Positions 48,675-51,600 of a DNA stretch of 64,000 nt are shown in pieces. The stretch's first letter is position 1. The number at the start of each line of letters is the position of its first letter. Position numbers: made by a program. The DNA is from Escherichia coli (GTDB lineage Bacteria; Pseudomonadota; Gammaproteobacteria; Enterobacterales; Enterobacteriaceae), in assembly GCF_002854065.1 (NCBI RefSeq), contig NZ_CP024150.1, one strand, 5' to 3'.

Positions 48675-51600
48675 CAACGGATAATCAGCTCCGTTTATCT
48701 CACCCTCTTTCATCTTTTCGTAAGATTGTATTTGGGTAAGTCCCTTAAAGAAGAACTCCTGCGGGGTCATATTCGGGCGGGCATCTGTTCCCTCCTCGGC
48801 TACCGCCAGCAAGAAATCACTCTGTACTGGCCGCACGATAGCGCGAATGAGATCTGGTAGCGCCTTAACGGGTAGTTTCTCTGCCACAGAAAGCAGGTGA
48901 TTAAAGCGTTTTTTTTCATTGGCTATAGTTGCTTTCTCTTTCTTGTTTCGGTTCCAGAACATCACTGTCCGTAGCACTCCTTATCGTGATCAAGATGATG
49001 GTTTTTAATTCTAATGCTGCGGTAGTTTCACGTCACGCACACATGCATATTCTTCAAAAGCTTCGGCGTCAGCCGGTCAACCAGTTCCGCCTAGTACCAC
49101 AGGATAAACAGGCTCCCCACTAAAATTACTTCTTGATTAGTACCACGTACTAAAATGTTTGATTTTAGTACGTGGTACTAGTATGATTATCAGCATGAAG
49201 CTAAAGGAGCCAGTGGGATGAACTATCTGGAGTTTGTTGAAACCAGCGCTTTCAGTGGTCTGCGTAAAGAGCTCATGGATGATGATGAATTTCGGGAACT
49301 GCAGACCTATTTACTGGAAGCTCATGATCGGGGTGACACTATCAGTCACACAGGTGGATGCAAAAAGATTCGGTGGAGCCGCCCAGGGATGGGGAAGCGA
49401 GGTGGCGTCAGAGTGATTTACTACGTTCGCCTTGCCAGCGGCAGATTATACCTGCTTCTGATATACCCTAAGAATGCTAAAGATGATCTTAGCGAGAAAG
49501 AAAAAGCCGTTATGAAGGTATTAGCACAGCAGCTGAAATAATGGTACCACTCAAATGGTGGCAGGCCTCTCCATAACGAGGAAAAATTTATGGAAAAGAA
49601 ACTTTTTGATGCACTTATTAACAGCATGGAGGAAATGGTTGCCATTGAGAATGGCCAAATCCAGCCAGCTGAAGAAAATATTCACCGCCATACACTGCCG
49701 GATGTGAAGGCTATTCGTAAACATGCCGGAATGAAACAGGCTGAATTTGCAGAAGTGGTGGGAGCCAGCGTTGACCTTATCCGCAGCTGGGAACAGAAAC
49801 GGCGTATCCCGTCGGGTATTGCGTTGAAAATGCTCTGTCTCATCGAACGTGAGCCAGCACTGATTAATACCTTGCGCAGCATTTAATCCTGAATTTCTAA
49901 AGCCCAGTTAGATGGGCTTTAATATTTGTGATTCTGTTAACTTCGATCTGACTGCATCGTCACGTAGGCGCATAATGACACCCGGTAGCCGATACTGTTC
50001 TCAGGGACGGGTTTCTGAACTAACCTAAAATCCAGTCGTAATGATCCTCGTGAGTTACAGGGCTGTCTGATGACATAATACAGACATTCCCATAACCACC
50101 ATCATGCGAAGCTGCATATTTAGACACGGCGATTGCATCATTTTTATTTTTTAATACCGCAATGATTTTTCCACTGTTATGCAATGTACTTACGCAGTAG
50201 ATCCCTTAGTGCAAAATCTGATTTTCTTTTAATTGACTAGCCATGCCGATTACCCTTCTCCGTACAGAATGATTAATTGTGCAAAGGTAGCTGATCAGTT
50301 CGTCAACCCGCCGTGAATACGTATCTTCAATCTGTATTCTGTTTCTGTGTACCGTTACAGACCCTGATTACTGTCATCTTTGATACGCCAGCCAGACGGG
50401 CAGTTTCTCGCAGCGATTTTCCGTTGACCATGCGCAGAGTACGTATCAGTTCATGTTTCTGCGCATCGGCCACCCTGCCCCGGTATTTTCCTTCAGCTTT
50501 CGCTTTACAGATTCCCTCTGCCTGCCGACGTCTACGGTCTTCGTAGTCTTTTCTGGCAATGGCGGCAAGCATATCCAGCATCATGCTATTTACGGCCTTT
50601 AACATGCTTCTGGTGAAGTCATCGCGGACTGCGTTGGTCAGGGCCATATGGCTGGTTGGGAGATCAAGACTGACAACAGATAACCGTTTATCTGTTATCT
50701 CTTTTCTAAGAATCACCCAGCCAGCATCATTCAGACGGGATAGCCGGTCCACCTGTTCAATCAAAATAACGTCCCCAGGCTCCATATCTGCAAGCATCCG
50801 AGTTAATTCCGGACGGTTCAGGGATGCACCTGATGCATTTTCAACATACCAGCCAGCAATTCGATGACCATGAAGCGCTGCAAATTCTTTGAGCCTGTTT
50901 TTTGAACGAAGCGCGTCTTGTTCCATTGTTGAAGCTCGAAGATATGCGTAAATGTACATTTTTTGCACGCCTGGTCTAGTATGAGTGGTCTATTATATAG
51001 TGGTAACTTTTAACTGGTACCATATCCAGGAATTCAAATCAATACTTGTGGTCATTTTTGGGGATACCCGAATGTGACTGACTGACTCGCCCGGGCGGGC
51101 TTGTCCAACCCCTCCCCCGTTCAGAAACAAGTTCTGAACAGACTCACGGTTTCGGAAACAGGTCAACAATATTAAATACGATCACATGAAATATTTCTTG
51201 GACACTTTTTCCGATAGTGCCGAAACGTCCACGATGGATCGTATTTTTTGTATATCCCAGGTTCAGGATTGACGGTGATGGAGCGAAGCACTGATTGAAC
51301 TGGACTGAAAATGCTGTATGTCCAGTCAGCCGGAGAATTATACTAGCGACCATGAGCATCACAGGAAGAACGCGTAACAGATGGCAACTGAGTGGGTAGA
51401 TGTGGCTGATAATGCCGTTAAAATTGGGCTTGGCTCTGCGCTGACAATATTGGGCGGTTATCTAACGCTCAAATTATCTCAGCGGCACGAGTTAAGGAAA
51501 GAAGCATTAATTCGACGACGTAAAGATTTTGAGGTGAAAACTGAGCGTTACGTGAATTTTTTATCCAGTTCAAGAAAGATGTTGCAGAAATATACTATCA

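Follow-up and report, generated by a model that had tools for sequence, protein, structure and literature searches.

A small serine recombinase gene and its adjoining predicted res site as a probable multimer-resolution module of Escherichia coli plasmids

The window, a 64,000-nt stretch of the Escherichia coli contig NZ_CP024150.1, carries a small serine recombinase gene on the minus strand (50327–50959) and, immediately upstream of its start codon, an array of TGGT motifs that leads into a longer repeat, here called junction repeat c. We read the recombinase and the ~109 bp upstream of it (50972–51080) as a resolvase with its res site, together forming a plasmid multimer-resolution module, and assign this reading a probability of about 0.8 on the strength of sequence comparison. 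The initial annotation had left a multimer-resolution site and an invertase crossover site side by side. The former is favored by an intact recombinase, by motif positions that are conserved among homologous loci, by a motif that changes with the recognition helix of the recombinase, and by a palindromic site at the gene-distal end of the array. The module would be an ordinary plasmid maintenance device, an uncharacterized serine resolvase/res pair with a somewhat unusual accessory layout.

The recombinase and its predicted res site

The recombinase reading frame spans 50327–50968 on the minus strand in the list of open reading frames (ORFs) of the window. Translation likely starts at the ATG at 50959, giving a protein of 210 aa followed by a stop codon, and RefSeq annotates the same 210-aa coding sequence on a 100%-identical E. 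coli plasmid. The gene call (50327–50959) is drawn from the ORF list, Pfam, homologue alignment and RefSeq. The Pfam resolvase N-terminal domain (PF00239) matches residues 3–159 (1e-22) and a helix-turn-helix (HTH) match lies at residues 183–205, so that the initial assignment of a serine recombinase to this locus is borne out by an intact frame. The C-terminal domain can be aligned with its counterparts in Sin and Tn3 resolvase, and the recognition helix reads VSKMTVIRV. The predicted nucleophile is Ser10 in the sequence YLRAST, aligned to S10 of Tn3 resolvase and S9 of Sin, and a DRLSR motif is also present. S10, R8 and DRLSR are kept in 17 of the 18 aligned recombinases, the exception being the unrelated recombinase of locus L005, and the catalytic serine and arginines persist across homologues down to 52% identity. 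The protein has the build of a small serine recombinase, with an N-terminal catalytic domain bearing a serine about 10 residues in, a C-terminal HTH and a length of ~180–210 aa.

On the plus strand, TGGT occurs upstream of the gene at 50972, 50986, 51001, 51015 and 51049, at spacings of 14, 15, 14 and 34 bp. Five TGGT repeats of ~14 bp had been described here; all five are present, but only four form regular units, and the fifth is set apart by 34 bp. The array begins 13 bp from the recombinase start codon, a distance that is always 12–16 bp across homologues. The first four motifs, R1–R4, form two tandem units of ~29 bp each, with both motifs of a unit in the same orientation. The accessory site nearest the gene, "site III" (50972–51000, plus strand), consists of R1 (TGGTCTAGTATGAG) and R2 (TGGTCTATTATATAG) head to tail, at offsets of −92 and −78 from the central A of the crossover site and with position weight matrix (PWM) scores of 6.4 and 9.8 bits. 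The second accessory site, "site II" (51001–51028, plus strand), consists of R3 (TGGTAACTTTTAAC) and R4 (TGGTACCATATCCA), likewise head to tail, at −63 and −49 and with scores of 16.3 and 6.9 bits. An AT-rich spacer of 20 bp (51029–51048), which differs in sequence among homologues, separates the accessory sites from the crossover site; by analogy with Sin, it could be the site of a DNA-bending protein.

With the fifth TGGT motif (51049) as its left arm, an imperfect inverted repeat of 32 bp, TGGTCATTTTTGGGG-AT-ACCCGAATGTGACTG (51049–51080), makes up the predicted crossover site, site I. Between its inner half-sites, GTCATTTTTGGGGA and GTCACATTCGGGTA, 10 of 14 positions agree, and the left and right arms score 11.6 and 5.6 bits. 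Judged by sequence, this is the arrangement expected of a resolvase crossover site, an inverted repeat of half-sites, ~28–32 bp long, around a central dinucleotide, and R1–R4 adjoin both site I and the gene as accessory sites would. We therefore take 51049–51080 as the putative crossover site, R3–R4 and R1–R2 as accessory sites and 50972–51080 as res.

The comparison with homologous loci, gathered from plasmids and genomes, shows that the array is not chance. Seven loci share the TGGT class of motif, namely the window, p503440_68 (L002), Yersinia pestis pMT1, Pantoea L006, Erwinia L007, Citrobacter L026 and L027, and in 7/7 the motifs start at −92, −78, −63, −49 and −15 from the central A (51064 in the window). 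The catalytic domains of these seven recombinases are 74–96% identical, and the DNA between the motifs is only ~60% identical. The consensus motif of the class is TGGT(A/C)(A/T)C(A/T)TTTA. A comparison with the res sites of related resolvases had been proposed at the outset as a check on the repeats, and it finds them conserved in position among homologues; a lack of such conservation had been named as grounds for refuting the reading, and it is not observed. The PWM was trained on the half-sites of pMT1, L006, L007 and L027, with the window excluded; it gives R1–R5 and the right arm of site I scores of 5.6–16.3 bits, each in the top 0.2% of 12-mers in the window. R3 is the top-scoring of 128,000 12-mers and R5 is among the top five. 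Between 50940 and 51152, beyond the six sites, 3 bits or more are reached only by the palindromic partner of R4 and by a spacer site of 4.7 bits. A second motif chain was not found in the window, which holds a single complete site only.

More distant homologues have the same architecture with other motifs. The window class combines TGGT(A/C) with the helix VSKMTVIRV. An IncN plasmid (L030, NZ_CP027137; 67% identity to the window protein) has ATGTCA(T/C) and VSERTVTRV, Yersinia ruckeri L029 (68%) has (G/A)TGA(C/T) and VSERTVIRI, and Vibrio L031 (61%) has (G/A)TGA(C/T) and VSTRTVIRV. Ferirhizobium L021 and Aurantimonas L025 (~53%) carry a TGGTTC-type motif. The 14/15/14 spacing is kept with these different motifs in L029, L030, L031, L021 and L025. 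A protein scan of genome contigs added 20 loci, mostly marine and at ~52% identity, which are informative on architecture rather than a dense sampling; among them, the Marinobacter/Idiomarina group pairs TGGTTCC or GGTCTG with the helix CSRHLIASV at spacings 1–2 bp shorter. The repeat motif changes in parallel with the recognition helix, the pattern expected of the recombinase's own binding sites. The predicted crossover site follows suit. Its counterpart in L026 is far more cleanly palindromic, TGGTATATATAGAGC-AT-ACTTATACAGAACCA, the marine homologues have a clean TGGTTCC...GTAC...GGAACCA palindrome, and a (G/A)TACC core is retained even at 52% protein identity.

Several further details of the array were noted. 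R4 contains the palindrome TGGTACCA (51015–51022), with the result that R3 and R4 can also be read as an inverted TGGTA-N12-TACCA; this is found only in the window and in L007. The spacer of p503440_68 contains a perfect 17-bp palindrome, TGGTTTGAATCAAACCA (L002, ~6675–6691). In L030, five tandem CAGCTAC heptamers lie on the recombinase strand just past the predicted crossover site (~2350–2385). A pKpQIL-like Klebsiella pneumoniae plasmid (CP067884, L028) has an end of the Tn3-family transposon Tn5403, GGGGTCGGTTCCGG, between R3 and R4 (~2410–2440). In many Klebsiella plasmids, the Tn5403 insertion cuts site I off from the gene-proximal motifs, and because it splits the homologous res, the resolution system there is probably inactive.

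Homology breakpoints, the conserved block and plasmid context

Junction repeat c has an 89-bp core (51064–51152, plus strand), with weaker similarity extending to ~51184. The initial 17 bp of this core belong to site I, comprising its central AT and its right arm. The array had been described as lying next to this repeat, which is correct and can be sharpened, as the repeat starts at 51064 and overlaps site I. With the right arm of site I inside the repeat, the adjacency of array and block is structural rather than incidental. The block is 80–90% conserved in 2145 plasmid records and occurs three times in the window, as copies a (19646–19765, minus strand), b (43427–43533, minus strand) and c (51064–51184, plus strand). 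Its conservation starts at ATACC in 10 of 11 aligned copies, the exception being L005_2 with AAACC.

The centre of site I is also where homology between loci begins or ends. From the gene through the left part of res, L026 and L027 are 98–99% identical, and to the right they are unrelated, at ~55% identity. L027 and L002 show the reverse, with 60% identity in the left part of res and 96% to the right. L032 is 100% identical to L027 exactly from the central A (query position 747), and the match of L033 ends at query position 750, 3 nt past the central A. These breakpoints fit exchange at the crossover dinucleotide, as we infer from the alignments. Shuffling at res was reportedly described by Kholodii in 2001 for Tn21-family transposons. 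A second place at which homology breaks recurrently is the right end of the block (~51152), at query position 834. pSLT (L003, 2985–3001) and L034 have the block with a TGGTAC left arm and without a resolvase gene. Such orphan crossover sites, by an Rpn-family gene and with no resolvase gene, were seen in L032 (1390–1500), pSLT and L034, and in L032 degenerate copies of R2–R5 persist besides the orphan site.

The block lies either beside res or ~110–155 bp upstream of a type-Ia parA gene, as in pSLT and for window copy b. Plasmid pMT1 has one copy between the resolvase gene and parA, and the second L005 copy is ~300 bp from a shorter ParA-family gene. Copy a of the window is flanked by an iol-type gene and a truncated umuC/insertion sequence (IS) remnant. 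The L005 locus also encodes a resolvase of a separate Tn3-like family (2179–2775, 198 aa), which includes Uvp1 of R46 (L035, 33148–33744); this resolvase has its own TGTACGAA repeats upstream, yet adjoins a block copy with an ATGAC-type left arm.

As to what the block itself might be, an Rfam search of 50000–52000 returned no match, and consensus folding of the 11 block copies yielded no compensatory pairs. An RNA or hairpin element was rejected on single-stranded DNA folding z-scores of −1.1 and +0.8, a coding block on 1-nt indels between copies, and a miniature inverted-repeat transposable element with terminal inverted repeats on end similarity seen in copy a only. The 72 bp of the block past the right arm of site I hold no match to the recombinase PWM and no promoter match. 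A tentative and rather doubtful proposal combines two parts: that the res of this family has an undescribed architecture, an inverted crossover site with two tandem Sin-like head-to-tail sites, and that the block is a conserved, portable unit that makes up the right half of res and has a further function, for example as a platform for a host or partition protein. If both held, the architecture of res would imply a synaptosome unlike both the Tn3 and the Sin models, and exchange at the AT boundary of the block would be a major driver of module shuffling in IncF-type plasmids and so account for the three block copies of the window.

The gene is carried mostly by plasmids. Matches in complete E. 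coli genomes are on plasmids in 190 of 194 cases, and a homologue of at least 60% identity occurs in ~1600 PLSDB plasmids, among them Y. pestis pMT1 and Klebsiella plasmids of the pKpQIL type. In the window, which belongs to a large E. coli plasmid, the resolvase gene has as neighbours a RelE/HTH toxin-antitoxin pair, a DUF6710 gene and a NERD-UvrD helicase gene, with parAB ~7 kb away. In pMT1, the gene, res and block adjoin parAB, a location in the plasmid maintenance region.

Two inverted IS3 copies (43873–45136 and 56474–57739; arms of 444 and 815 nt, 100% complementary) flank a segment of ~11 kb that holds the toxin-antitoxin pair, the helicase gene, the resolvase gene, res and block c. 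Through inversion between these copies, block c could have come to lie in a different orientation with respect to block b. The window also has a diverged second copy of the umuD/umuC side, accompanied by block copy a (17716–18124 versus 39182–39591 and 16016–16097 versus 38025–38106; 80–94% identity). This second copy and block a suggest a plasmid that combines two related backbones, either as a mosaic or as a cointegrate.

Proposed mechanism and competing explanations

In the mechanism that we propose, one recombinase dimer would bind the inverted site I (51049–51080) and further dimers would bind R3–R4 and R1–R2. Homologous recombination would produce a plasmid dimer with two res copies in direct repeat. 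The copies would synapse through the dimers at the accessory sites, a bending protein of the host possibly occupying the 20-bp spacer. Ser10 would then cut both strands at the central dinucleotide, the subunits would rotate, and religation would release two monomers. Resolution of this kind would aid stable inheritance alongside the ParAB system of the plasmid. Occasional exchange at site I between plasmids would, as proposed, account for the homology breaks at its centre.

Binding to R1–R2 probably also autoregulates the gene. A perfect TATAAT can be read within R2 on the gene strand (50997 to 50992), 33 nt upstream of the ATG, and would be covered by the recombinase. The promoter evidence counts against this part of the mechanism, since a consensus promoter scan of the res region found no full sigma-70 match and no −35 match and the hexamer of R2 is not conserved among homologues, and autoregulation is weakly supported for both reasons.

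The resolvase/res reading itself has other points to its debit. The literature searched contains no description of the res of this resolvase family, and no binding, cleavage or resolution is reported there. The central dinucleotide may be AT (51064–51065) or the overlapping TA (51065–51066), between which the sequence does not decide. The right arm of site I has CA in place of TG at the two outer positions of the motif and reaches only 5.6 bits, and the right arms at the equivalent sites of L029 and L033 are poor. The breakpoints could in principle mark the end of an independent conserved element and not a recombinase crossover. Finally, the statistics of the window alone are not significant: it holds 198 clusters in which some tetramer occurs at least five times within 82 nt, and a four-copy chain at spacings of 13–16 bp is expected about once per shuffled window. 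As such clusters and chains are not rare, the significance of the array was taken from the comparison of homologues.

Four other explanations bear on the same evidence. The one that survives best, though improbable, is that the repeats are operators only and the protein a domesticated, recombinase-like repressor that carries out no recombination. It draws on the overlap of R2 with the TATAAT hexamer, on the silence of the literature searched about recombination by this family, and on the autorepression of Tn3 and γδ resolvases at res. A mere repressor, however, would not be expected to conserve the catalytic serine and arginines down to 52% identity, nor to face a palindromic site with a conserved core at a fixed distance, at the very centre of which the breakpoints fall.

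Slightly less probable still is that the recombinase resolves the cointegrates of a Tn3-type replicative transposon instead of plasmid dimers. Many small serine resolvases are transposon-borne, and the region is bracketed by two IS3 copies. IS3, however, transposes without a resolvase, and neither a Tn3-family transposase nor 38-bp terminal repeats lie beside the gene in the window, pMT1, L002, L026 or L027. The neighbours are instead a toxin-antitoxin pair, a helicase gene, Rpn genes and parAB.

The invertase reading, an option in the initial annotation, fares worse and is very unlikely. In the form considered here, the enzyme would flip a segment between inverted sites such as block c (plus strand) and block a or b (minus strand). 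Copies a and b are indeed inverted with respect to c and carry the central ATACC and right-arm sequence, and the best NCBIfam match by name is to an invertase family. That match, to the Mpi invertase model NF009949, reaches only 49 bits, far short of the cut-off of 272. Neither copy a nor copy b has an in-register left arm or any accessory motif, and their block arms score below 0 with the PWM, leaving one complete site and one motif chain in the window. All six full-length matches in E. coli plasmids share junction c, and an accessory array adjacent to the gene is an arrangement of resolvases.

That the repeats are a product of chance, or iterons or a centromere bound by another protein, is hardly credible: the window statistics alone are compatible with chance, but the motif positions are conserved in seven or more homologues, the PWM owes nothing to the window, motif and recognition helix co-vary, and the array always lies 12–16 bp from the recombinase start codon.

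On the resolvase/res reading, the "recombinase family protein" of more than 1000 clinically relevant plasmids (pMT1, pKpQIL-like, IncFIB/FII) could be read as a dimer resolvase, and its unannotated res could be placed to the base. The location of res would in turn explain the recurrent homology breakpoints and the transposon insertions, such as that of Tn5403 in pKpQIL-type plasmids. The conserved block by the crossover point offers a lead on module exchange among IncF-type plasmids.

Comparison with known recombination systems

The Hin, Gin and Mpi invertases belong to the same superfamily, are of similar size and also use a short inverted crossover site with a central dinucleotide. Unlike the window system, they act on two inverted crossover sites with a Fis-bound enhancer and have no accessory array; neither a second complete site nor an enhancer of this kind is seen at the window.

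Uvp1 of the IncN plasmid R46 is a plasmid serine resolvase whose gene-adjacent res attracts integron and transposon insertions (PMC12217951). R46 Uvp1/Per was considered as a close characterized relative and rejected, having ~20% identity (42 identical residues in 216 aligned columns) and belonging to a different family. The homologue with 67% identity that another IncN plasmid (L030) carries is a different gene.

The closest named relative found is the ParA resolvase of an RP4-type plasmid, at 42.6% identity over residues 6–200. RP4 ParA is said, following Eberl et al. in 1994, to function in plasmid multimer resolution. The sequence by parC in an RP4-type IncP plasmid, TTGGTCAAATTGGGTATACCCATTTGGGCC, shares a GGTCA...GGGTATACCC core with the window sequence TGGTCATTTTTGGGGATACCC, so that GGGTATACCC is common to site I and to the site adjoining parC. 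However, ParA is the third gene of a parCBA operon, and the palindromic core adjoins the start of the operon and is not distal to it. In the window, neither parC nor parB lies beside the gene, and identity is only 42.6%, which places it outside the parCBA group. In the IncP plasmid PB11 (L036, 1590–1700), a Tn5053/Tn402-type terminal repeat of a mer transposon, TCACTTTCAGAAGGCGACAGCAC, lies ~60 bp from the GGGTATACCC core by parC. The insertion is of the res-hunter kind and falls within the resolution site of ParA; because the transposon interrupts the site, the accessory layout of RP4 was left out of the comparison.

The Tn3 res is 114 bp long and has three inverted sites (PMC9943657). In res sites of the Tn3 type, site I is distal, the last site abuts the resolvase start codon and the promoter lies within res (PMC12217951, PMC9943657). 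The window resembles Tn3/γδ in length (114 versus ~109 bp), in its three dimer-sized sites, in a distal site I, in a last site that adjoins the start codon and in the central AT. It differs in that all three Tn3 sites are inverted, whereas the accessory motifs of the window are direct. With direct accessory motifs and no transposase beside the gene, the locus is not of the Tn3 type.

In structural terms, the closest solved relative is Sin bound to site II (2r0q), with a full-length alignment at an E value of 9e-14, as against ~1e-7 for the Tn3/γδ resolvase structures. A segment at residues ~100–120 is present in the window recombinase and in Sin and absent from Tn3 resolvase. The half-sites of Sin site II, a 29-bp site, are arranged head to tail, and the res of Sin spans 86 bp with one regulatory dimer site and an HU/IHF site in the spacer (PMC2428073). 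Like Sin/resH of Staphylococcus aureus plasmids, the window system is plasmid-borne and of similar size, with head-to-tail regulatory motifs, all four of R1–R4 being on the same strand, and with an inverted crossover site distal to the regulatory site. Unlike Sin, it has four head-to-tail motifs in two ~29-bp units and a Gram-negative host, and sequence similarity is distant; its six half-sites over ~109 bp set it apart from the two-dimer-site, 86-bp plan. The predicted layout of the window res, an inverted site I with two head-to-tail accessory sites, combines features of Sin and Tn3, and with its four accessory motifs head to tail it would stand as a third natural res layout beside those two.

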